DNA of 32,000 bases from contig NZ_LN831024.1 of the NCBI RefSeq assembly GCF_001457615.1, positions 540,001 to 572,000 of the forward strand, in the 5' to 3' direction. Below the pieces are notes generated by a model. That model worked only from the letters and a program-made list of their open reading frames with translations, was not told the DNA's origin and searched no databases. This DNA is from Pseudomonas aeruginosa (GTDB lineage Bacteria; Pseudomonadota; Gammaproteobacteria; Pseudomonadales; Pseudomonadaceae). How positions within the stretch are numbered: position 1 is the first letter of the stretch; every line of letters begins with the position of its first letter. The translations under genes were made by a program, and so were the position numbers. This document shows positions 2,514 to 18,233 of this stretch, piece by piece.

Positions 2514-3890
2514 ATGCACAAGCGACTGAACAAGCTGCTGGTGGCCAATCGCGGCGAGATCGCCGTGCGCATCATCCGCGCCGCGCAGGCACTGGGCATT
2601 CCCACGGTAGCGGTGTGCAGCGAGGCGGATCGCGATTCGCTGGCCGCGCGGCTGGCCGATGAGGTACGCCTGATCGGCCCTGCGCGGGCCGACCGGAGCT
2701 ACCTGGATATCGAGGCGATTCTCATGGCGGCGCGGGAAACCGGTGCCGACTCGATCCATCCCGGCTACGGTTTCCTCTCCGAGAACCCCGCCTTCGCCGA
2801 AGCGGTGCAGGCGGCCGGCCTGGTCTTCGTCGGTCCGGAGGCGCAGACCATCCGCCGCATGGGCGACAAGGCCGAGGCGCGGCGTACCGCGATGGCCGCC
2901 GGGGTGCCGGTGGTGCCGGGCTCGCCCGGCGAACTGGGCGACCTCGACGCGGCGCTGGCCTGCGCCGAAGAGGTCGGCTATCCGCTGCTGGTCAAGGCCT
3001 CCGCCGGCGGCGGCGGGCGTGGCATCCGTATCGCCCACGACGCCGACGAACTGCGTCGGGAATTCCCCATCGCCCAGCGCGAGGCGCAGGCCGCCTTCGG
3101 TTCGCCGGCGGTGTACCTGGAGCGCTTCATCCGCCAGGCACGGCACATCGAAGTGCAAATCCTCGGCGATGGCGAGCGCGCGGTGCATCTGTTCGAACGC
3201 GAATGCTCGCTGCAGCGGCGGCGCCAGAAGGTCTTCGAGGAGGCACCTTCGGCGGCGCTGGACGGCGCGCAGCGCCAGGCCCTCTGCGAGAGCGCGGTGC
3301 GCCTGGCGCAGAGTCTCGGCTATCGTGGCGCGGGCACCCTGGAATACCTGTTCGACGCGCACAGCGGCGAGTTCTTCTTCATCGAGATGAACACCCGTAT
3401 CCAGGTCGAGCATCCGGTCAGCGAGATGGTCACCGGCATCGACCTGGTCCAGGCCATGCTGCGCATCGCCGCCGGCGAGGCGCTGCCCTGGCGCCAGGAG
3501 GACATTCGCCTGAACGGCGCGGCGCTGGAGATGCGGATCAACGCCGAAGACCCGGCGCGCAATTTCTTCCCCAGCCCCGGCACCGTGGAGCGCCTGGAAT
3601 GGCCGCAGGGCGAGGGCGTGCGAGTGGACAGCCACCTGTATCCCGGCTACCGGGTGCCGCCCTACTACGATTCGTTGCTGGCCAAGCTGATCGTCCATGG
3701 TCGCGACCGCGACGAAGCGTTCGCCCGCGCGCGCCAGGCGCTGGAGCGCACCGTGCTGGCCGGCATGGCCACTACCCTGCCGCTGTACCGCTGGCTGCTC
3801 GCCGATGCGCGGGTACAGGCCGCGCAGTTCGATACCGCTACCCTGGAAACCTGGCTCGCCGAGCGGACCGCCGCCGCGCAGGAGGTTTGA
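2514..3890 (+). CDS. biotin carboxylase (ATP-grasp) subunit
   Basis: 458 aa. KLLVANRGEIAVRIIRA N-terminus, glycine loop ASAGGGGRGIR, and EMNTRIQVEHPVSE motif. GAGGAGG RBS. Confidence 0.95.
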   Translation: MHKRLNKLLVANRGEIAVRIIRAAQALGIPTVAVCSEADRDSLAARLADEVRLIGPARADRSYLDIEAILMAARETGADSIHPGYGFLSENPAFAEAVQAAGLVFVGPEAQTIRRMGDKAEARRTAMAAGVPVVPGSPGELGDLDAALACAEEVGYPLLVKASAGGGGRGIRIAHDADELRREFPIAQREAQAAFGSPAVYLERFIRQARHIEVQILGDGERAVHLFERECSLQRRRQKVFEEAPSAALDGAQRQALCESAVRLAQSLGYRGAGTLEYLFDAHSGEFFFIEMNTRIQVEHPVSEMVTGIDLVQAMLRIAAGEALPWRQEDIRLNGAALEMRINAEDPARNFFPSPGTVERLEWPQGEGVRVDSHLYPGYRVPPYYDSLLAKLIVHGRDRDEAFARARQALERTVLAGMATTLPLYRWLLADARVQAAQFDTATLETWLAERTAAAQEV

Positions 3891-3891
3891 G

Positions 3892-4770
3892 ATGCATGCC
3901 AACATCCGCTACAGCTTCGGCGGCGACGAGCACCTGTTCGCCGAGGTCGCCGAGTCCATGTCGCTGGAAGCCTTCTTCCGCGGCATGGCGATCACCCGCG
4001 CCATCGAGACCCTGCAATTGCCCGGGGTGCTCGACGTATGCCTGGCCAACGCCTCGTTCCAGGTCCGCTTCGACCCCGACCGGCTGGCCCCGCAGGCGCT
4101 GCTGGAGACCGTACGCGGCCTGGAAGCCGAGGCGGTCGCCGCGCGCAGCATCGAGACGCGTATCGTCGAAGTGCCGGTGTTGTACAACGATCCCTGGACC
4201 CACGAGACCCTGATGCGCTTCCGCGACCGTCACCAGGACCCGGACTCCACCGACCTCGAGTACGCCGCGCGGATCAACGGCTACGCCGACGTGCAGGCGT
4301 TCATCCAGGCGCACAGCGGCACGCCGTGGTTCGTCTCGATGGTCGGTTTCGTCGCCGGCCTGCCGTTCATGTACCAGATGGTCGAGCGCGAGCGGCAGTT
4401 GCAGGTGCCCAAGTACCTGCGTCCGCGCATCGACACGCCGAAGCTGACCCTCGGCCACGGCGGTTGCTTCGGCTGCATCTATTCGGTGCGCGGTGCCGGC
4501 GGCTATCAGATGTTCGGCGTGACTCCGGCGCCGATCTTCGATCCCCGCCAGGGCCTGCCCTATCTCGAGGAATCGATGGTGTTCTTCCGCGCTGGCGACA
4601 TCGTCCAGTTCCGCCCCATCGAGCGGACCGAGTACGAGCGCATGGCGGCCGAAGTCGAAGCGGGCACATTCGACCTGCGCATCCGCCCGGTGAGTTTCGA
4701 TCTCGACGCGTTCCTCGCCGATCCGCGAGGCTGCACGCAACGTCTGCAGGAGGTGCTGTATGTCGATTAA
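3892..4770 (+). CDS. KipI/PxpB-like protein ('allophanate hydrolase subunit 1' family; carboxyltransferase-like)
   Basis: The track ORF 3697..4770 overlaps the biotin carboxylase 3' end, so I trimmed it to ATG 3892 (GGAGG at 3881, 1 nt after the BC stop). This gives 292 aa starting MHANIRYSFGGDEHLFAEV, typical of the KipI/PxpB family. Confidence 0.8.
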   Translation: MHANIRYSFGGDEHLFAEVAESMSLEAFFRGMAITRAIETLQLPGVLDVCLANASFQVRFDPDRLAPQALLETVRGLEAEAVAARSIETRIVEVPVLYNDPWTHETLMRFRDRHQDPDSTDLEYAARINGYADVQAFIQAHSGTPWFVSMVGFVAGLPFMYQMVERERQLQVPKYLRPRIDTPKLTLGHGGCFGCIYSVRGAGGYQMFGVTPAPIFDPRQGLPYLEESMVFFRAGDIVQFRPIERTEYERMAAEVEAGTFDLRIRPVSFDLDAFLADPRGCTQRLQEVLYVD

Positions 4771-5737
4771 GGTGCTCAAGCCCGGCCTCGCCACCTCGGT
4801 GCAGGACGCCGGCCGCGAAGGCCACTATCACCTGGGCATCCCGCCGTCCGGCGCGCTCGACCAGTATGCCCTGCGCGCGGCCAACCTGCTGGTGGGCAAC
4901 GCACCGACCGCCGCCGTGCTGGAGTGCGCGCTGCTGGGTCCGCAGCTGGAGTTCCAGCGCGACGCCCTGGTGGCCGTGTGCGGGGCGCGCATGACGCCTC
5001 GCCTGGAGGGCGCGGAGATGCCGCTGGATACTTCCTTCCGGGTTCGCGCCGGGCAGGTCCTGGGGTTCGACTTCATCCGTGCCGGCGCCCGTGGCTATCT
5101 CGCCATCGACGGCGGCATCGCGGTACCCGAGGTGCTGGGCAGCCGTTCGACCTACGGTCTGGGGGCGATCGGTGGCTTGCAGGGACGACGGCTGGCGGAG
5201 GGCGACCTGCTGCCCCTGGGGCCTGCCTCGCCCTCTGCCGTGGAGGGCTTGGCGCTGCCGCGTTCGCTGCAGGTGGAGGTCGGCGGCGAGGTGAGCTTGC
5301 GGGTGGTTCCCGGGCTCTACGTCCATCGCCTGACCCCCGACGCGGTCGAGCGTTTCTTCGCCGAGACCTGGACCGTCGGTTCGGAGGCGGACCGCACCGG
5401 CTACCGCTTCAAGGGCGGCACGGCGCTCCGGTTCGAGCCGCGCGAACAGCCATTCGGCGCAGGCTCGGACCCGTCCAACATCGTCGACGCCTGCTATCCC
5501 ATCGGCTCGATCCAGGTACCGGGCGGGCTCGAACCCATCGTCCTGCATCGTGATGCGGTGTCCGGTGGGGGATATGCCACGCTGGGCACGGTGATCAGCC
5601 CCGACCTGAACCGGCTGGCGCAGATGCAACCGAACCAGAAGGCGCGTTTCGTCGCCGTCAGCCTGGAGGAAGGTCTCGAGGCGCGTCGCCGTTACAACTG
5701 GCAAGTGCAACGACTCCAGCACTTCTTCCTGCGCTGA
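4760..5737 (+). CDS. KipA/PxpC-like protein ('allophanate hydrolase subunit 2' family; carboxyltransferase-like)
   Basis: 325 aa. MSIKVLKPGLATSVQDAGREGHYHLGIPPSGALD is the KipA/PxpC N-terminal signature. The start overlaps the upstream gene by 11 nt, suggesting translational coupling. Confidence 0.8.
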   Translation: MSIKVLKPGLATSVQDAGREGHYHLGIPPSGALDQYALRAANLLVGNAPTAAVLECALLGPQLEFQRDALVAVCGARMTPRLEGAEMPLDTSFRVRAGQVLGFDFIRAGARGYLAIDGGIAVPEVLGSRSTYGLGAIGGLQGRRLAEGDLLPLGPASPSAVEGLALPRSLQVEVGGEVSLRVVPGLYVHRLTPDAVERFFAETWTVGSEADRTGYRFKGGTALRFEPREQPFGAGSDPSNIVDACYPIGSIQVPGGLEPIVLHRDAVSGGGYATLGTVISPDLNRLAQMQPNQKARFVAVSLEEGLEARRRYNWQVQRLQHFFLR

Positions 5738-5746
5738 GTCGATACC

Positions 5747-5773
5747 GGGCCGCTTCGGTCTGCGAAGCGGCCC
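5747..5773. terminator. bidirectional hairpin between convergent genes
   Basis: Perfect 11-bp stem gggccgcttcg (5747..5757) / cgaagcggccc (5763..5773) with loop gtctg. It lies between the stop at 5737 (+) and the stop at 5781 (-). Confidence 0.6.
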
Positions 5774-5780
5774 CGGGCGG

Positions 5781-6782
5781 TCACTTGTAGTAGACCTCTA
5801 TCGCGGCGGTGGCGTTGAAGGGGCCTGGCGTTGGAGTGCCCGTCATCCACCTCACCTGGGCGAGGAAGTTTCTTATGACCACCAATTGGTTCTGGCTATT
5901 GGGCACCAGTACGAACTCCTTGCCGATATCGATGATGCTGCGGTCTTCCTGCTTGAGAAGTCGGATTCCCACGGACTTGTTGTTGTTATCCAAAAGAGTG
6001 TCCGAACCCCACAGGGAGGTGCTGCCGGAGGGGAGGAACATCGCGTTCAGGCCATAGGCGCTGCTGCAGTTCTTATTGGCGGTGACGCTGAACGGAAGTT
6101 CCTTGAGGATCTGGTCCCGGCTGGCGAAATAGGCCTGCAGGCTTTGGAAGTCGACGGTTTTTGGAGAAAGGCTGATTGTGGACGCGCAGGCGACGTAGCG
6201 AAGGTTATTCAAGCCGTGGAGGGTCATGCGGAAGTTGTACCCCCCTATGTTATTGATAGCGCTCTCGCCATCGAACTGGAAAATCGGGTAGGCGTTTACC
6301 CCTGTGATAGGACCTTCCTTACCGGTACTGGGACCTGCCCGCTTGGAGAGAAAGAAGTTGAAGTTGACGGTCATCTTCTTCGCCCTGCCTTCGCAACCTC
6401 GTCCCGTCCAGCAACCATCGAAGTGCATGCCGATCTCCTTTCGGCACTTGTCGAGTGTCGAGCAGCGCAGGTCTTCGCCGTTCAGGTTGATGCCCACCTC
6501 CAGGTCCGAACCCAGCGCGCCCTGACCGGTTGGACTCAGGTAGAAATAGACCTGCTCTGGCCCCCAGTCGCGATCCTGGAAGCAAGTGATCGATATGGAG
6601 TAGTTCGGAGACCGCCAGAGTACGGTGTCCTTGGGGAGGACCGATGGAACAGCGATGCTCGTATCGATGTAGACATAATCTTCGGTTTGCTTGTTGTCCG
6701 ATTTCCAGCACATCAAGGCGAAGCTTTTCTGCGACAGGACGAGCAGCATTGCGACAAGCATGTAACGGATGAAGGCATTCAT
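5781..6782 (-). CDS. fimbrial two-domain adhesin-like protein, paralog 1 (333 aa)
   Basis: Track ORF 5781..6929 trimmed to ATG 6782, where the signal peptide MNAFIRYMLVAMLLVLSQKSFA begins. The C-terminal half has the chaperone-usher pilin pattern: Cys pair YVACAST...NKNCSS, VGIRLL, and terminal GPFNATAAIEVYYK. The N-terminal ~150 aa is Cys-rich, resembling a lectin domain. Confidence 0.75.
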   Translation of the reverse strand: MNAFIRYMLVAMLLVLSQKSFALMCWKSDNKQTEDYVYIDTSIAVPSVLPKDTVLWRSPNYSISITCFQDRDWGPEQVYFYLSPTGQGALGSDLEVGINLNGEDLRCSTLDKCRKEIGMHFDGCWTGRGCEGRAKKMTVNFNFFLSKRAGPSTGKEGPITGVNAYPIFQFDGESAINNIGGYNFRMTLHGLNNLRYVACASTISLSPKTVDFQSLQAYFASRDQILKELPFSVTANKNCSSAYGLNAMFLPSGSTSLWGSDTLLDNNNKSVGIRLLKQEDRSIIDIGKEFVLVPNSQNQLVVIRNFLAQVRWMTGTPTPGPFNATAAIEVYYK

Positions 6783-6859
6783 GGGGTTCTTCTGCAGGTT
6801 GTTAATCGATTCTTGTTTTTGCAGAGCATGCCGCGCCTGTTGCAGGTGCGGCCTAGCGG

Positions 6860-7866
6860 TCACTTGTAATAGACCTCTATCGCGGCGGTGGCGTTGAACG
6901 GGCCTAGAATGGGTCTGCTCGTCATCCACCTCAGTTGGGCGAGAAAGTTCTTCGTCACCGTCGTCTGGGTTGGGGCGTAGGGAATGAACTCGAACTCCTT
7001 ACCGATACTGATGACGCTGCGATCCTCATTGAGGAGCCTGATGCCCACTGTTGGATTGTCCTTGGCCAGCAACGTATCCGTGCTCGACAGGGTGGTATTG
7101 CTGGCGGGAATGAACATAGCGTTCAGGCCATAGGCGCTGTTGCAGCTCTTATTGGCGGTGATGCTGAAGGGAAGTTCTTTGATGACCAGATTCTGTGCGG
7201 CAAATTGCGATTGCAGTATCTGGAAGTTGAGGGTTTTTGGAGAAATGCTTAGCGTGGAGGTGCAGGCGACGTAGCGGAGGTTGTTCATGCCAAGGGCATA
7301 CATACGTAGGTTCCGGCCCCCCAGGTTGTTGATGCCTCCCACTCCATCGAACTGGAACAGTGCGTAGGAGTTTACGCCCGTGATGGGACCTTCCTTGCCG
7401 GGAGTGGGGCGGCGAGTTTGGAGAGGAAGATCTGGAAACGGACCTGCTTGGTCTGAGCCATGCCTTCGCATCCCCCCCGTCCTCCTGTCCAGCAACCATC
7501 GAAATGCATGCCTATCTTCTGCCGGCAGCCGGGGAGCGAGGAACAACGGAGGTCCTCGCCGTTCAGGTTGATGCCCACCTCCAGGTCCGAGCCCAATGCG
7601 CCCTGGCCGTCCGGACTGAGATAGAAATAGACGTCCTCAGGTCCGGTGTTTTCGCGCTCCTGGTAACACCTGACGGAGAAATCGTAGGTTGGAGAGCGCC
7701 AGAGCACGGTGTCCTTGGGCAGAGCCGAAGGCACGGCGATGCTCGTGTCGATGTTGACATAGTCGATCGTTGCCTTGTTGTCCGCTCTTTCGCAGGTCAG
7801 CGCATAACCTTTCTGCGCCAACGCAACCAGCATTCCCACAAGTAGTGTTCGGGTAATTGCATTCAT
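6860..7866 (-). pseudogene. fimbrial adhesin-like protein, paralog 2, split by a -1 frame change
   Basis: The N-terminal fragment (ORF 7372..7866; signal peptide MNAITRTLLVGMLVALAQKGYA) aligns to paralog 1 up to ..FLSK. The C-terminal fragment (ORF 6860..7546) aligns from ..PTPGKEGPITGVN to GPFNATAAIEVYYK. The frames switch at a C4 run (plus-strand gggg 7406..7409). Confidence 0.7.
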
Positions 7867-7881
7867 GGTGTATTCCGGGCC

Positions 7882-8625
7882 TCATGGGTGTTTGGCGTTG
7901 GTCTCTACGCCTGATTTCAATGCGCCGTGATAAGGGTGGAGGTTCCCTCCGTCGCTGACGATCGCGTAACGCACTTTGTCGGGATGGCAGGCGGCGATGT
8001 CGAACTGGTGATTGGAGAAGGGCGCCAGCATCAGGTGTTCGATGGCTTCGCCGCAGCTCCGCTCCGATGCGTCGAGGAACTCCAACTGGCTGAAGGTGAT
8101 GTGGTAGGGCGAAGGATTGTGTGCCTTCGGATTGCCGCTGGTGCCGAGCGTCCACGTCACGCCCTCGTTCGCCTGCTCGACGGTGGCTTCCAGGGGCGGC
8201 CGATAGAACAGCTTGAAGCGATGGCGTAGGGCGATCTGCAGGGTCTCGGGAGTACTGGGCGCGTGCGGCACGTCCAGCACGCTCAACAGCAGGTAGGTCT
8301 CGCGGTCGGTGGGCAGGCCCTGGCCCTGGTAGAGCACCTCTACCTTGGCCCGCTGGCCGGCGCCCAGGCGGAGCAGCGGCCTGGACACGGCGAAGGGCAG
8401 CGCCTGCCCCTTGCCGTCGGTACCCCAATCCAGGGAGATTTCCGCCAGGGCCGGCTCCTTGCCCTCGTTGACCAGCGTGATCGGCAGGCGCTTGCCTTTC
8501 ATCACGAAACGGTTCTGGCCGTCGAACGAGAGATCGGCATGGGCGGACATGCACAGCCAGGCGAATATCGATGCAAGAACCATCCGAAGCCAACTTCGGA
8601 CCTGGAAGAGGCGCTTTCCATTCAT
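7882..8625 (-). CDS. PapD-like periplasmic pilus-assembly chaperone
   Basis: Track ORF 7882..8757 trimmed to ATG 8625, which gives the signal peptide MNGKRLFQVRSWLRMVLASIFAWLCMSAHA. The mature N-terminus NRFVMKGKRLPITLVNEGKEPALAEISLDW matches the chaperone 'RVIY..g.k...l.v.N.g..p.l.q.w' pattern. About 248 aa. Stop is 15 nt before the paralog 2 start. Confidence 0.8.
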   Translation of the reverse strand: MNGKRLFQVRSWLRMVLASIFAWLCMSAHADLSFDGQNRFVMKGKRLPITLVNEGKEPALAEISLDWGTDGKGQALPFAVSRPLLRLGAGQRAKVEVLYQGQGLPTDRETYLLLSVLDVPHAPSTPETLQIALRHRFKLFYRPPLEATVEQANEGVTWTLGTSGNPKAHNPSPYHITFSQLEFLDASERSCGEAIEHLMLAPFSNHQFDIAACHPDKVRYAIVSDGGNLHPYHGALKSGVETNAKHP

Positions 8626-8857
8626 ATTCCTGAATGTGCCCGAATGAAACCCGTATCGTGTTTTGGAAAGTGGTTGGTCGGAAGGGTCGAATATATTTTT
8701 CGTTATACTTCCGCTGCGCTTTGAATGGCTATATTTAGGGTGGTTGGTTGCGTTCATGGTTCAAGTCTGGATAACTTGTTTTCGTTGCGCACCGCTAGGG
8801 TGGCAAGAGATTCAATGTTTCTCCATGTTAGAAACCTGCTAGGGAATATATAAATAA

Positions 8858-8886
8858 GATATTTCCTATTTCTTGTAGGAAATATC
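8858..8886. promoter_or_regulatory. 11-bp perfect inverted repeat in AT-rich intergenic region (candidate operator)
   Basis: gatatttccta (8858..8868) / taggaaatatc (8876..8886) with a 7-nt spacer tttcttg. Located upstream of the chaperone operon on the minus strand. Confidence 0.3.
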
Positions 8887-9001
8887 CTAAGCATTACTTG
8901 TAGTTTTCCGAGGTAGTTGCGCCGTTTCTTCCAGGGAGCCGAATGCCACATAGAGGACGAGGCCGATTGGAGCAGTCGATGACTACTGGCTTCTACATGA
9001 G

Positions 9002-9018
9002 TGATCAAATATTGATCA
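9002..9018. promoter_or_regulatory. 17-bp palindrome TGATCAA-ATA-TTGATCA (unassigned binding site)
   Basis: Perfect 7-bp arms (9002..9008 / 9012..9018). Sits 27 bp upstream of the putative bioB -35 element. Confidence 0.3.
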
Positions 9019-9019
9019 G

Positions 9020-9051
9020 ATGTAGTCCTGTGTCCTGGGTTGGGTTGACAG
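9020..9051 (+). promoter_or_regulatory. candidate BirA operator (bioO-like)
   Basis: aTGTAgtCC (9020..9028)-N14-GGTTgACAg (9043..9051). As I recall, the enterobacterial bioO is TTGTAAACC-N14/15-GGTTTACAA. The right half overlaps the -35 element. Confidence 0.35.
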
Positions 9052-9072
9052 CGTCATACAGCCACTTATGAT
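9045..9072 (+). promoter_or_regulatory. sigma-70 promoter of the bio operon
   Basis: TTGACA (9045..9050), 16-nt spacer, TATGAT (9067..9072). About 77 nt upstream of the bioB ATG. Confidence 0.5.
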
Positions 9073-9148
9073 GCCCTTGAGCCTGACCCCCGGCGTGCCG
9101 GGGCTCCCCGACAAAAGGCGCCATACAAGCGTCGAAGGAATCTTCCCC

Positions 9149-10207
9149 ATGAGTGCAACCGCTTCCGTCGCCACCCGTCACGACTGGTCCCTCGCCGAAG
9201 TCCGTGCCCTGTTCGAGCAACCGTTCAACGACCTGCTGTTCCAGGCGCAGACGGTGCATCGCGCGCACTTCGACCCGAACCGCGTGCAGGTCTCGACGCT
9301 GCTGTCGATCAAGACCGGCGCCTGCCCCGAGGACTGCAAGTACTGCCCGCAGTCCGGCCACTACAACACCGGCCTGGACAAGGAGAAGCTGTTGGAGGTG
9401 CAGAAGGTCCTCGAGGCGGCGGCCGAGGCCAAGGCCATCGGTTCGACCCGCTTCTGCATGGGCGCTGCCTGGAAGCACCCGTCGGCCAAGGACATGCCCT
9501 ACGTCCTGGAGATGGTCAAGGGCGTGAAGAAGCTCGGCCTGGAGACCTGCATGACCCTCGGCCGCCTGACCCAGGAACAGACCCAGGCGCTGGCGGACGC
9601 CGGCCTCGACTACTACAACCACAACCTGGATACCTCGCCGGAGTTCTACGGCAACATCATCACCACCCGCACCTACAGCGAGCGCCTGCAGACCCTGGCC
9701 TACGTGCGCGAGGCGGGGATGAAGATCTGCTCCGGCGGCATCCTCGGCATGGGCGAGTCGGTGGACGACCGCGCCGGCCTGCTGATCCAACTGGCGAACC
9801 TGCCGGAGCACCCGGAGTCGGTGCCGATCAACATGCTGGTGAAGGTCAAGGGCACGCCCCTGGCGGAAGAGAGGGACGTCGATCCCTTCGACTTCATCCG
9901 CACCCTGGCGGTGGCCCGGATCATGATGCCGAAGTCCCACGTGCGCCTGTCCGCCGGCCGCGAGCAGATGAACGAGCAGATGCAGGCGCTGGCCTTCATG
10001 GCCGGGGCCAACTCGATCTTCTACGGCGAAAAGCTGCTGACCACGAAGAACCCGCAGGCCGAAAAGGACATGCAGTTGTTCGCCCGTCTCGGCATCAAGC
10101 CGGAAGAGCGCGAAGAGCACGCCGACGAAGTGCACCAGGCCGCCATCGAGCAGGCGTTGGTGGAACAACGCGAATCGAAGCTGTTCTATAACGCCGCTTC
10201 CGCCTGA
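9149..10207 (+). CDS. bioB: biotin synthase
   Basis: 352 aa from ATG 9149, with GAAGGAA RBS at 9134..9140. Radical-SAM CxxxCxxC motif ([11 protein letters not shown]). The longer track start at 9068 was rejected. Confidence 0.97.
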
Positions 10208-10312
10208 CCATACTGGAAGGGAGGGCGCCGCCGTCCCTTCGTTGCAGCCGCTGATGTCGGCCCTGCGTGGACGGGTGCGCCTGCGTCCGTCCAGCAACAC
10301 GAGCGACCTGCC

Positions 10313-11518
10313 ATGTCCTTCGATCTCGCTTCCCGCCTCGCCAGCCGGCGCGCGGAAGACCTCTACCGCCAGCGGCCGCTGCTGGAGTCGGCCCAGGGCC
10401 CGGACGTCGTGGTCGACGGCCAGCCGCTGCTGGCCTTCTGTTCCAACGACTACCTCGGCCTGGCCAACCATCCCGAGGTGATCGCCGCGCTGCGCGCCGG
10501 CGCCGAGCGCTGGGGCGTGGGCGGTGGCGCCTCGCACCTGGTGGTCGGCCACAGCGGCCCGCACCACGAACTGGAGCTGGCCCTCGCCGAATTCACCGGG
10601 CGGCCCCGTGCGCTGCTGTTCTCCACCGGCTACATGGCCAATCTCGGCGCGGTGACCGCGCTGGTCGGCAAGGGCGACACGGTGCTGGAGGACCGCCTCA
10701 ACCACGCTTCGCTGCTGGATGCCGGATTGCTCTCCGGCGCGCGTTTCTCGCGCTACCTGCACAACGACCCGGCAAGCCTCGCCGCGCGCCTGGACAAGGC
10801 CGAGGGCAATACCCTGGTGGTCACCGACGGGGTCTTCAGCATGGACGGCAATCTCGCCGACCTGCCGGCCCTGGCCGCCGTCGCGCAGGCCCGCGGCGCC
10901 TGGCTGATGGTCGACGACGCGCATGGCTTCGGCCCGCTGGGCGCCAGCGGCGGCGGGATCGTCGAACATTTCGGCCTCGGCCAGGAGCAGGTGCCGGTGC
11001 TGATCGGCACCCTCGGCAAGGGTTTCGGTACCGCCGGCGCCTTCGTAGCGGGCAGCGAGGAACTGATCGAGACCCTGATTCAGTACGCCCGGCCCTACAT
11101 CTACACCACCAGCCAGCCGCCAGCGGTGGCCTGCGCCACCCTGAAGAGCCTGGAGCTGCTGCGCCGCGAAAGCTGGCGGCGGCAACACCTGGCGGCGCTG
11201 ATCGCCCGTTTCCGCCATGGCGCCGAGGCGCTTGGCCTGACCCTGATGGACAGCTTCACGCCGATCCAGCCGATCCTGGTCGGCGGCAGCCGCCAGGCCG
11301 TGGCCCTGGCCGGCATGCTTCGAGCCCGTGGCATCATGGTCGGCGCGATCCGCCCGCCAACCGTGCCGGCCAACAGCGCGCGGCTGCGCGTCACGCTGTC
11401 CGCCGCGCACAGCGAAGCGCAGGTCGACCGCTTGCTCGAAGCCCTCGGCGAAAGCTGGCGACAGCTGTCGTCTAGCCTTCTGGCAGAGATCGAAGCCGAG
11501 GAGGGAGACGATGCGTGA
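10313..11518 (+). CDS. bioF: 8-amino-7-oxononanoate synthase
   Basis: 401 aa class-II aminotransferase. PLP-lysine context GTLGKGFG. Lies between bioB and bioH. Confidence 0.95.
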
Positions 11519-12233
11519 CCACCTGATCCTGTTGCCGGGCTGGGGCCTGGGCAGCGCACCGCTGGAACCGCTGCGCGACGCGCTGCACGAGCGCGAGCCG
11601 CACCTGAACGTGTTGATCGAGCCGCTGCCGTCGCTGGACGACGCCGCCGACTGGCTCGACGAACTCGACGATAACCTGCCGCGCGATAGCTGGCTGGCCG
11701 GCTGGTCGCTGGGAGGCATGCTCGCCGGCGAACTGGCGGCGCGCCGCGGCGACGATTGCCGGGGACTGCTGACCCTGGCCAGCAATCCGTGCTTCCGCGT
11801 GCGCGAGGACTGGCCGAACGCGATGCCGGCGGAAACCTTCGAGGACTTCTTCGAGGCTTTCCTGCTCGAACCGCACCTGACCCGCAAGCGTTTCACCCTG
11901 CTGGTCAGCCAGGGTGCGCGCGACCCTCGGACCCTGGCGCGGCAACTGCAGGTGGCGCTGCCGCAGCTGGAGCGCGAGGCGCTGGTCGCCGGCCTGCAGT
12001 TGCTCGGCCAACTGGATACCCGGGCCGCCCTGGAAAACTTCCGCGGGCCGCAATTGCACCTGTTCGCCGAAGCCGATGCGCTGGTGCCGCTGGCCGCCGC
12101 CGAGACCCTGCTCGAGTGGCTGCCGGACGTCGAGGTCTCGACCCTGGCGGCCAGTCACGGCCTGCCGCTGGAATGCCCGGACGAGGTGGCCGGCGCAATC
12201 CTGAGATTCCTTCGCGAGGGTGACGATGCCTGA
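11511..12233 (+). CDS. bioH: pimeloyl-ACP methyl ester esterase (alpha/beta hydrolase)
   Basis: Track ORF trimmed to ATG 11511 ([12 protein letters not shown]), which overlaps the bioF stop by 8 nt. Nucleophile elbow GWSLGG. Confidence 0.85.
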
Positions 12234-13050
12234 CGATTCCTCGCCGCTGCTGGCGCCCCATGGCGTTGCCGCGCTGCCCGACAAGCGCCAGGTCGCCGCG
12301 TCGTTTTCCCGCGCGGCGGCCAGCTACGACGCGGTGGCCGAACTCCAGCGCGGCGTCGGCGAGAGCCTGCTGTCGGCATTGCCGGAAGGCTTCTCGCCGC
12401 GCCGCTGGGTCGATCTCGGCTGCGGCACCGGTTATTTCAGCCGGGCCCTGGAACGACGCTTCGGTGCGGCCGAGGGCCTGGCCGTGGATATCGCCGAAGG
12501 CATGCTGCGGCATGCCCGCGCGCGCGGCGGCGCCAGCCATTTCATCGGCGGCGACGCCGAGAGGCTGCCGTTGCGCGACGGCAGTTGCGACCTGCTGTTC
12601 TCCAGCCTGGCGATCCAGTGGTGCGCCGACCTCCCGGCGGTCCTGGCCGAGGCGCGGCGGGTCCTGCGGCCGGGCGGCGTGCTGGCGTTCAGCAGCCTGT
12701 GCGTCGGTACCCTGGGCGAGTTGCGCGACAGTTGGCGGGTGGTGGACGGCTTCGTCCACGTCAATCGCTTCCGCGCCTTCGCCGACTACCTGCAACACGC
12801 GGCCGGCAGCGGCCTGCTGCCGCTGACCCTGCGCCACGAGGACCGGCTCCTGCATTTCCCCGACCTGCGCAGCCTGACCCACGAACTCAAGGCGCTGGGC
12901 GCGCACAACCTCAACCCCGGGCGGCCCGACGGCCTGACCGGGCGCCAGCGCATCCGCGCGCTGGTCGCCGCCTACGAGCGTTTCCGCCAGCCCGAGGGGC
13001 TGCCCGCTACCTACCGCGTCGTCTTCGGCGTGCTGCGCAAGGATTCCTGA
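12226..13050 (+). CDS. bioC: malonyl-ACP O-methyltransferase
   Basis: SAM-methyltransferase motif I VDLGCGTG. Start at ATG 12226, with GTG 12220 as an alternative. Overlaps the bioH stop. Confidence 0.9.

Positions 13051-16436: not shown

Positions 16437-18233
<1,797 letters not shown>

Follow-up and report, generated by a model that had tools for sequence, protein, structure and literature searches.

A locus encoding a PapD-like periplasmic chaperone and two tandem fimbrial adhesin paralogs was analysed in a stretch of 32,000 nucleotides (nt) of the Pseudomonas aeruginosa genome (contig NZ_LN831024.1, positions 540,001 to 572,000), referred to here as the window, with coordinates counted from its first nucleotide. 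The locus lies between a plus-strand set of biotin-carboxylase and 5-oxoprolinase-like genes, which ends at 5737, and bioB (9068-10207, plus strand). On the minus strand between these blocks, the chaperone gene (PA0499-type, 7882..8625, with the open reading frame (ORF) as computed extending to 8757) is followed by adhesin paralog 2 (PA0498-type, 6860..7866), a pseudogene in the window that is split into two frames, and then by adhesin paralog 1 (PA0497-type, 5781..6782), which is intact and encodes 333 amino acids. The chaperone gene and paralog 2 are separated by 15 nt (7867-7881) and the two paralogs by 77 nt (6783-6859), exactly as counted in a preliminary description of this DNA. That description gave both adhesins a length of about 333 residues, which is wrong for the window, paralog 2 being frameshifted and only paralog 1 intact. 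The paralogs form a tandem duplication of approximately 1.08 kb with a nucleotide identity of 71-81%.

Six-frame ORFs of at least 90 amino acids from the whole 32-kb window were scanned with phmmer using one CupC-type usher and one pilin as queries, and no usher or major pilin was found; the ORF list for 3500-11500 likewise contains no usher-sized ORF. The absence of both gene types, noted earlier for the locus itself, was in this way extended to the entire window, and a self-contained chaperone-usher operon, with a PF00577 usher and a major pilin beside the chaperone, was not found there. The guanine and cytosine (GC) content was 53-58% over the adhesin genes (5700-8100) and 44-50% over 8550-9150, with flanks at 65-74%, while the 5’ part of the chaperone gene (7950-8550) is near the flank level at 63-69%. 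The low-GC islet proposed previously was accordingly seen as a genuine dip in a profile that is not flat, but the dip is patchy and not a uniform islet. The genes were also said to be annotated only as hypothetical proteins or a probable chaperone, which is outdated, as current records read “fimbrial protein” and “fimbrial biogenesis chaperone”. In the literature, PA0499 appears only as a probable pilus chaperone, and a search that lay outside most subscription journals returned nothing on PA0497 or PA0498 as adhesins.

The assignment of the chaperone to the PapD-like class was confirmed by Pfam, with matches of ORF 7882..8757 to PapD_N (PF00345, E-value 4.1e-20) and PapD_C (PF02753, 5.5e-15), both above the curated cut-offs. 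Its start codon is probably either the ATG at 8625 (247 amino acids) or that at 8583 (233 amino acids, the deposited length). The best match in the PDB was CupB2 (3q48, 5.6e-21). In the alignment to this structure, the segment NRFVM of the chaperone lines up with the arginine of the RVVF segment of CupB2, and RFKLFYRP, which is preceded by LQIALRHRF, lines up with RFKLFFRP, with the LPTDRE motif being retained. An invariant arginine and lysine have been named for PapD-like chaperones (PMC3031594), and from the alignment we take the arginine of NRFVM to be Arg36 and the lysine of RFKLFYRP to be Lys141, the putative anchors of the subunit C-terminal carboxylate. The protein was found to possess the features that define the class, namely two immunoglobulin-like domains, the arginine and lysine, and alternating hydrophobic residues in the G1 strand. 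The exact 233-amino-acid sequence is present on at least 1000 contigs. The window was judged not to come from strain PAO1, its chaperone being of the most frequent type and distinct from the PAO1 entry AAG03888.1. A homolog search returned a narrow orthologous family followed by unnamed chaperones at approximately 30-33% identity, so that no named chaperone, such as CupB4, could be given as the closest relative outside that family.

Paralog 1 consists of a signal peptide (residues 1-22), a receptor-binding domain (approximately 23-175) and a pilin domain that matches the Pfam family Fimbrial (PF00419) over residues 184-333 (5.8e-26). Many of the features previously described for the adhesins were found as stated: both paralogs carry signal peptides, with cleavage following the alanine of ALMC and ALTC, and the insert of four cysteines, the cysteine pair of the pilin domain, the VGIRLL motif and the terminal AAIEVYYK are all present. 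The partner of the cysteine at the cleavage site lies 42 residues on, where about 45 had been estimated. The extra four-cysteine segment (residues 107-130) is conserved, as each of the eight cysteines is found in 21 or 22 of the 22 family members compared. The single exception has lost both C107 and C113, and their loss together in the same sequence suggests that these two residues pair. C199, C239, Y332 and K333 are invariant in all 22 sequences. The exact paralog 1 sequence occurs in 4,946 blocks of the assembly-collection index and on at least 1,000 contigs; chaperone and paralog 1 recur unchanged in thousands of P. aeruginosa assemblies.

The structure of paralog 1 was modelled with AlphaFold2 from the 22-sequence alignment; the model was confident, with a mean pLDDT (predicted local distance difference test) of 87.9, and all-beta with two domains, its strands starting at residue 23, the first mature residue. 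As the strands start there, within the receptor-binding domain, the model leaves no N-terminal extension, and the protein would be expected to cap a fibre and be unable to enter its shaft. When the full-length model was compared to the PDB with Foldseek, FimH was the top match (1qun_B, 5.1e-11), followed by LpfD, CupB6, FocH and PapG; the pilin domain alone also matched FimA, FimG and FimF. The model has what is expected of a two-domain tip adhesin, that is a C-terminal pilin domain with a disulfide and an aromatic-ended strand, and an N-terminal beta-sandwich in place of the extension, and a location at the fibre tip and a role in receptor binding are predicted for the protein.

The term FimH-like, which had been applied to these proteins, describes the architecture and fold well (pLDDT 87.9, Foldseek 5e-11) but does not extend to family membership, there being no Pfam match to a lectin domain. 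No Pfam family other than Fimbrial was matched at E-values up to 1, and among PDB sequences nothing was found up to the same value except a chance match. Membership of the FimH lectin family was rejected on the lack of a Pfam FimH match, the lack of a PDB sequence match and an identity of 13-14% in the structural alignment. Membership of the MrkD family (PF22003) was likewise rejected, as neither the window proteins nor their orthologs at two loci from other taxa described below (L019 and L024) match MrkDrd, while neighbouring adhesins in L003 and L019 do. By its sequence, the N-terminal domain falls outside the described lectin families, and its own family is small, with 87 clusters at 50% identity among 1.84 billion proteins. 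Two proteins, P0151 (1806 amino acids) and P0210 (547 amino acids), were found to contain ten and five repeats, respectively, resembling part of this domain, the best stretches corresponding to approximately query residues 23-83 and 78-140; parts of its fold may recur as repeat modules in large proteins.

Comparison between strains revealed that the bioB site of P. aeruginosa is occupied by at least three alleles, these being the two-adhesin type of the window, one with a single adhesin 75% identical to paralog 1, and one with a single adhesin 53-54% identical to it. A fourth allele, with an adhesin 49-51% identical to paralog 1, is found at the same site in Pseudomonas paraeruginosa. Across alleles, the chaperone is 58-85% and the adhesin 49-75% identical, with a synonymous divergence (dS) of 0.8-2 (saturated), while the bioB and pxpC-like flanks of the same genomes are 96-99% identical (dS 0.02-0.19). 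The ratio of nonsynonymous to synonymous divergence (dN/dS) was 0.2-0.45 for both chaperone and adhesin, which is purifying selection, and some P. aeruginosa alleles are nearer to proteins of Pseudomonas chlororaphis than to one another. A receptor-binding domain more variable than the pilin domain, as diversifying selection on the tip would produce, was looked for and not found, the two domains diverging to a similar degree. In strains with the 54%-identity allele, the pxpC-like gene (CT_A_B) appears as two ORFs in L002 (8100-9079) and was not called in L001 (10999-12012), and is probably disrupted.

The variable part was delimited as a minus-strand cassette (5781..8300) comprising the 3’ two-thirds of the chaperone gene and the adhesin gene or genes. 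In sliding comparisons with L008 and L001, identity was 96-100% down to approximately 8400 and dropped from approximately 8300, inside the chaperone gene; the promoter and the first 300 nt or so of this gene are 96-100% identical per 100 nt between allele types. At the other end, identity returned to approximately 100% in the segment starting at 5800, that is at the adhesin stop (5781), a boundary resolved for L008 only. The cassette covers most of the lower-GC stretch, and its start inside the chaperone gene explains the uneven GC profile. These boundaries indicate that the chaperone 3’ part and the adhesin are exchanged as a unit by homologous recombination, as a co-adapted pair predicts, and exchange from strain to strain would give rise to strain-specific tip adhesins. 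The GC dip had been read as a sign of horizontal acquisition; since P. paraeruginosa carries a homologous but highly divergent pair at the same site, an old cassette that is fixed at its site and swapped by recombination is a better description of the locus than an acquired islet.

Fetched loci were all scanned as six-frame ORFs with reference usher, pilin, chaperone and adhesin sequences. The adhesin and chaperone families were found to be equally narrow, with members in P. aeruginosa, P. paraeruginosa, P. chlororaphis, a few other Pseudomonas, the Burkholderia cepacia complex and Pseudoxanthomonas, and additional chaperone homologs in Comamonas. No usher was found within up to 10 kb of the pair in the P. 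aeruginosa, P. paraeruginosa and P. chlororaphis loci examined, and the usher-less pair occurs at three unrelated sites, namely bioB, a second P. aeruginosa site beside a GDSL autotransporter (L006) and a P. chlororaphis site (L003). Elsewhere, at seven loci of other taxa, a complete pilin-chaperone-usher operon either includes the orthologous pair or lies beside it. In Pseudoxanthomonas sp. z9 (L024), genes for pilin, chaperone, usher, chaperone and adhesin follow one another in a single contiguous operon, with a 6-nt gap at one gene junction and a 4-nt overlap at another, and the same gene order is found in Burkholderia ubonensis (L026). Two Pseudomonas sp. loci (L019, L020) have the pair directly after the operon and an MrkD-like adhesin gene; in two Pseudoxanthomonas metagenome-assembled genomes (L022, L023) it is divergent from the operon across a common intergenic region, and in Burkholderia cenocepacia (L004) a transposase remnant precedes it and two further adhesin genes come after it. 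An adjacent cognate usher in related strains had been put forward in the preliminary description as the mark of a decayed remnant; within P. aeruginosa there was none, while in other genera there was, which makes the pair the detached end of an operon.

Homologs of the usher from the Pseudomonas sp. locus are named “usher CupC3” by many sources. The closest core usher of P. aeruginosa is 69% identical, belongs to a cluster of 2,023 sequences and lies in a three-gene pilin-chaperone-usher cluster that is followed by ogt, pqsA-E and phnA and contains no adhesin gene. On the PAO1 map, this cluster corresponds to cupC1-C3 (PA0992-PA0994). The operons linked to the pair are 51-69% (usher), 50-61% (chaperone) and 31-61% (pilin) identical to P. 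aeruginosa CupC1-3, while the other usher of L026, which is unrelated, reaches no more than 39%. Judged from gene order and these identities, the pair is in other bacteria the distal end of a CupC-type operon, and it is exactly those two genes that cupC of P. aeruginosa is without. The suggestion that the adhesins use a Cup-type usher in trans is in this way supported and, by the seven linked loci, narrowed to CupC, with the use in trans itself being an inference.

cupC was found to be dimorphic in P. aeruginosa (L033 versus L034 and L035), the common usher P0224 being 69% and the rarer P0220 73% identical to one and the same outgroup usher. A RocS-like hybrid kinase is encoded beside hpt in the rarer allele, and in L035 an IS21-type insertion (4208-6042) lies between hpt and cupC1. 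The second usher-less pair, present in some P. aeruginosa (L006, L007, 9245-11053), encodes an adhesin of 350 amino acids that is 46-47% identical; the neighbours of this pair, near ptrC, are genes for a RocS-like sensor kinase and for an autotransporter of the GDSL-lipase type. Two giant proteins of 1555 and more than 2932 amino acids are encoded next to the pair in P. chlororaphis (L003, 1-8415), and the same locus holds two orphan genes for two-domain fimbrial adhesins (11739-12767 and 16808-17779; one MrkD-like, one with a weak PapG_C match), with no usher within 10 kb. The CupC-type operon of B. cenocepacia is directly preceded by a gene for a TPS-domain (TpsA-like) protein (L004, 1-2451), which recalls the TpsA-like CupB5 in cupB.

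The divergent intergenic region between the chaperone gene and bioB (8626..9067), in which the promoter lies, is rich in A and T (44-50% GC) and is conserved at 96-100% identity per 100 nt across the three P. aeruginosa allele types. It contains a 14-base-pair (bp) inverted repeat, TAGGATATTTCCTA N7 TAGGAAATATCTTA (8855..8889, minus strand, 93% complementary), which is a candidate operator. The 16-mer at 8874-8889 inside this repeat (TAGGATATTTCCTACA) resembles sites upstream of cupC1 (TAGGAAACTTCATACA), of the second cupC1 allele (TAGGAAAAGTCATACA) and of the chaperone-adhesin pair of L006 (TGGGAAATTTCATACA), with the motif located at 5356-5371 in L033, 6377-6392 in L034, 9144-9159 in L006 and 731-746 in L024. 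A consensus built from both cupC1 sites and the L006 site (TRGGAAANKTCATACA) has one match with up to two mismatches in the 32-kb window, located at the 16-mer of the inverted repeat, compared to 0.02 expected by chance. In approximately 0.5 Mb of loci, its matches all lay upstream of cupC1 or of chaperone-adhesin pairs, except for one at the start of a CupC1-like pilin gene of Pseudoxanthomonas. Through this common motif the pair may be co-regulated with cupC.

The regulation of both loci has been touched on in published work. RocA1 activates cupC (PMC12051241). PA0499 is transcribed and is induced in the surface-attachment response (PMC9112911); BsrA binds and activates it (PMC8407307), and chromatin immunoprecipitation peaks for BsrA, AlgR and CzcR lie upstream of it (PMC8407307, PMC4787818, PMC13209446). 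A transposon insertion in PA0499 was selected in a screen for mutants favouring chronic airway infection (PMC3033382).

On balance, and with no more than moderate confidence, we favour the interpretation that the locus is a functional module, a “second chaperone and tip adhesin” half that has become detached from a CupC-type system and relies in trans on the CupC3 usher. The module would consist of the dedicated second chaperone (PA0499-type) and its client, the two-domain tip adhesin (PA0497-type), which is duplicated here with the PA0498-type copy inactivated; in other words, the cassette probably supplies the adhesin that is missing from the CupC pilus of P. aeruginosa. The synteny in relatives, the lack of an adhesin gene in cupC and the promoter motif are the grounds on which use of CupC3 and CupC1 is proposed. 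Drawing on established chaperone-usher biology, the adhesin would be exported by the Sec pathway and captured in the periplasm by the chaperone, which would complete its C-terminal pilin domain by donor-strand complementation. The complex would then dock on an usher encoded elsewhere, most likely CupC3. Having no N-terminal extension, the adhesin could occupy the distal tip only, and the rod subunit, predicted to be CupC1, would polymerise beneath it by donor-strand exchange.

Several points weigh against this interpretation. The CupC-type operons of L004, L019 and L020 already have an MrkD-like adhesin of their own, so that the pair might be an optional addition instead of providing the cognate tip. 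P. aeruginosa also possesses the CupA, CupB and CupE ushers, and the usher comparison made here covered CupC. The promoter motif is short, and its match in the window has two mismatches and lies approximately 250-300 nt upstream of the chaperone start, while it is nearer the start in cupC1 (approximately 135 nt) and in L006 (approximately 90 nt). The literature within reach of the search, most subscription journals being outside it, contained no experimental link between the locus and CupC. Furthermore, paralog 2 is broken in the window and, through other frameshifts, in other lineages, and this repeated breakage means that at least one adhesin copy is dispensable.

The pair could alternatively be a functional module that works with a different usher or with any usher (CupA3, CupB3, CupE5 or several), that is an independent cassette for an alternative adhesin, not tied specifically to CupC, which we regard as clearly less probable. 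In keeping with it, the pair is found at several unrelated genomic sites, the chaperone is best matched in the PDB by CupB2, the adhesin model matches the CupB6 tip adhesin, and second chaperones are also used by CupB and by CupA and CupD (PMC3031594, PMC2696094). However, CupB2 and CupB6 are the only chaperone-usher chaperone and tip adhesin of P. aeruginosa among the PDB matches, so that these top matches say little, and the usher is CupC-type in all seven usher-linked loci. In addition, cupA, cupB and cupD carry adhesin genes of their own and cupC has none, and the promoter motif is held in common with cupC1.

The lesions of paralog 2 were examined by comparison with ten other strains that encode an identical paralog 1. 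Its N-terminal ORF in the window (7372..7866) ends at a stop after 164 amino acids, while the pilin part lies in another frame (ORF 6860..7546, stop at 6860), and the Pfam match to Fimbrial (4.1e-23) is confined to this C-terminal fragment. The frameshift is a 1-nt deletion in a run of cytosines (7406..7409, minus strand), which is C4 in the window and C5 in the intact allele (AAACTCGCCGCCCCACT in the window versus AAACTCGCCGCCCCCACT in L009-L018 and L027-L030). C5 was found in ten of the ten other strains, nine of which encode an intact paralog 2 of 335 amino acids (P0006). The truncated products of the window are rare, the 164-amino-acid form being present on 5 contigs and a 203-amino-acid form on 3 (contigs having been counted, not isolates), and this recurrence makes a one-off sequencing error unlikely as the cause. 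A second frameshift hotspot in the population is a G7 homopolymer in the coding sequence (7472..7478, minus strand). Most strains have seven guanines here, as the window does, while L011 has G6, with the gene not called, and L027-L030 have G8, with the truncated product P0064; in L010, L012 and L014 the run is broken by a synonymous change to GAGGGGG. Taken together, the C4, G6 and G8 lesions indicate that paralog 2 has been inactivated independently at least three times.

These frameshift alleles among strains with an identical paralog 1 could reflect mutational hotspots or low-level phase variation. A role of paralog 2 as a contingency gene, turned on and off in phase variation by slippage in the G7 and C5 runs, is suggested by the G6, G7, G8 and C4 alleles in this strain set but appears doubtful to us, given that the runs are short for contingency loci, that nine of ten sampled strains are in frame, that some strains carry a synonymous interruption of the run, and that the alleles are known from comparison between strains only, with none from within a strain.

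A role without any usher, whether as a stable periplasmic complex or as a lectin-like protein that is released or placed in the outer membrane by another route, was raised in the preliminary description and is in keeping with the conservation of the usher-less arrangement at three sites. We consider it improbable, as the pilin domain retains the C-terminal strand and disulfide of its family and the orthologs lie inside usher operons with overlapping genes; moreover, chaperone-usher pilin domains are not known to act in the absence of an usher. Least probable of all is that the locus is a decaying remnant of a former five-gene operon with no current function: although usher and pilin genes are absent nearby, paralog 2 is frameshifted here with independent G6 and G8 changes elsewhere, and the full operon is attached to the pair in other genera, decay is contradicted by a dN/dS of 0.2-0.45 over saturated dS and by intact paralog 1 and chaperone genes whose exact sequences are widespread (4,946 index blocks for paralog 1; at least 1000 contigs for each), as well as by the conservation of all eight cysteines and of the chaperone anchor residues, the expression and regulation of the genes, a mutant with a phenotype, and the occupation of this one site by homologous pairs in both P. 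aeruginosa and P. paraeruginosa.

A comparison with described systems sets the proposed CupC module in context. CupC (cupC1-C3, PA0992-PA0994) resembles the operons to which the pair is joined elsewhere, with usher identities to CupC3 of 51-69%, and shares the 16-nt promoter motif with the pair; it differs in that cupC of P. aeruginosa comprises only pilin, chaperone and usher genes, with the pair at a separate bioB-adjacent locus and its functional link to cupC a proposed one. CupB4 with CupB6, CupA5 and CupD5 provide examples of a second PapD-like chaperone encoded beside a two-domain tip adhesin. However, in CupB, CupA and CupD the chaperone-adhesin pair sits inside the usher operon. The gene order of L024 and L026 resembles that of cupB (PMC3031594, PMC5022761), although cupB additionally has the TpsA-like CupB5 and a POTRA-containing usher, and the binding of CupB4 to CupB6 may be indirect (PMC3031594). 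The paralog 1 model matches CupB6 (5cyl) with an E-value of 1.7e-9, yet at a sequence identity of only 9-11%.

The window adhesin has the layout of FimH in the FimC-FimH system of Escherichia coli, namely a signal peptide, an N-terminal receptor-binding beta-sandwich whose disulfide starts at the third mature residue, and a pilin domain at the C-terminus in need of a donor strand. It differs from FimH in sequence (13-14% identity), in having no match to a mannose-binding Pfam family and in its extra conserved four-cysteine segment (107-130); furthermore, FimH shares the chaperone of the rod subunits, whereas the window adhesin has its own. MrkD-like adhesins (PF22003 with PF00419) are also two-domain tip adhesins and adjoin orthologs of the pair in L003, L004 and L019, but the window proteins and their orthologs are without an MrkDrd match and have an N-terminal domain of a small family. 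In Bordetella pertussis, the fimbrial genes fim2 and fim3 are unlinked from fimBCD, which offers a precedent for a single chaperone-usher system that is encoded at separate loci and works in trans. There, however, it is the major subunits that are unlinked while the adhesin stays with chaperone and usher, whereas here it is the adhesin and its dedicated chaperone. The components of the locus are in themselves ordinary members of known families; what is new is the combination of the split arrangement with a private co-evolving chaperone and an allelic cassette.

Beyond these genes, no RNA family was found in the window with Rfam. The convergent adhesin and pxpC-like genes are separated by a GC-rich hairpin (5747..5773, no strand assigned; folding free energy -26.1 kcal/mol, z-score -3.1, 11-bp stem). 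It was considered as an intrinsic terminator downstream of paralog 1 and rejected, since neither strand of this strong hairpin carries a T-run. A near-consensus sigma-70 promoter (TTGACA, 16 nt, TATGAT; 11 of 12 positions) was identified on the plus strand at 9045-9072, where it overlaps the start of the listed bioB ORF and diverges from the promoter region of the chaperone gene.

A more far-reaching proposal can be offered tentatively: that CupC fimbriae receive their tip adhesin from an unlinked cassette swapped by recombination, with a private chaperone co-evolving with its client, so that lineages display different CupC tips (49-75% identical), and that in one type the duplicate adhesin is recurrently switched off by homopolymer frameshifts. 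If this is true, the organisation of adhesin diversity would resemble that of other hypervariable surface loci in P. aeruginosa. PA0497/PA0498 with the private chaperone PA0499 form a specific candidate for the adhesin that cupC does not encode. Should the link to CupC prove wrong, the locus would still be a clean example of a conserved usher-less chaperone-adhesin pair in need of explanation. It is a strongly polymorphic adhesin cassette between near-identical flanks in a major pathogen, and a transposon insertion in it affects chronic lung infection (PMC3033382); it may therefore bear on strain-specific tropism, on vaccine or anti-adhesion targets and on the break-up of chaperone-usher operons into modules.

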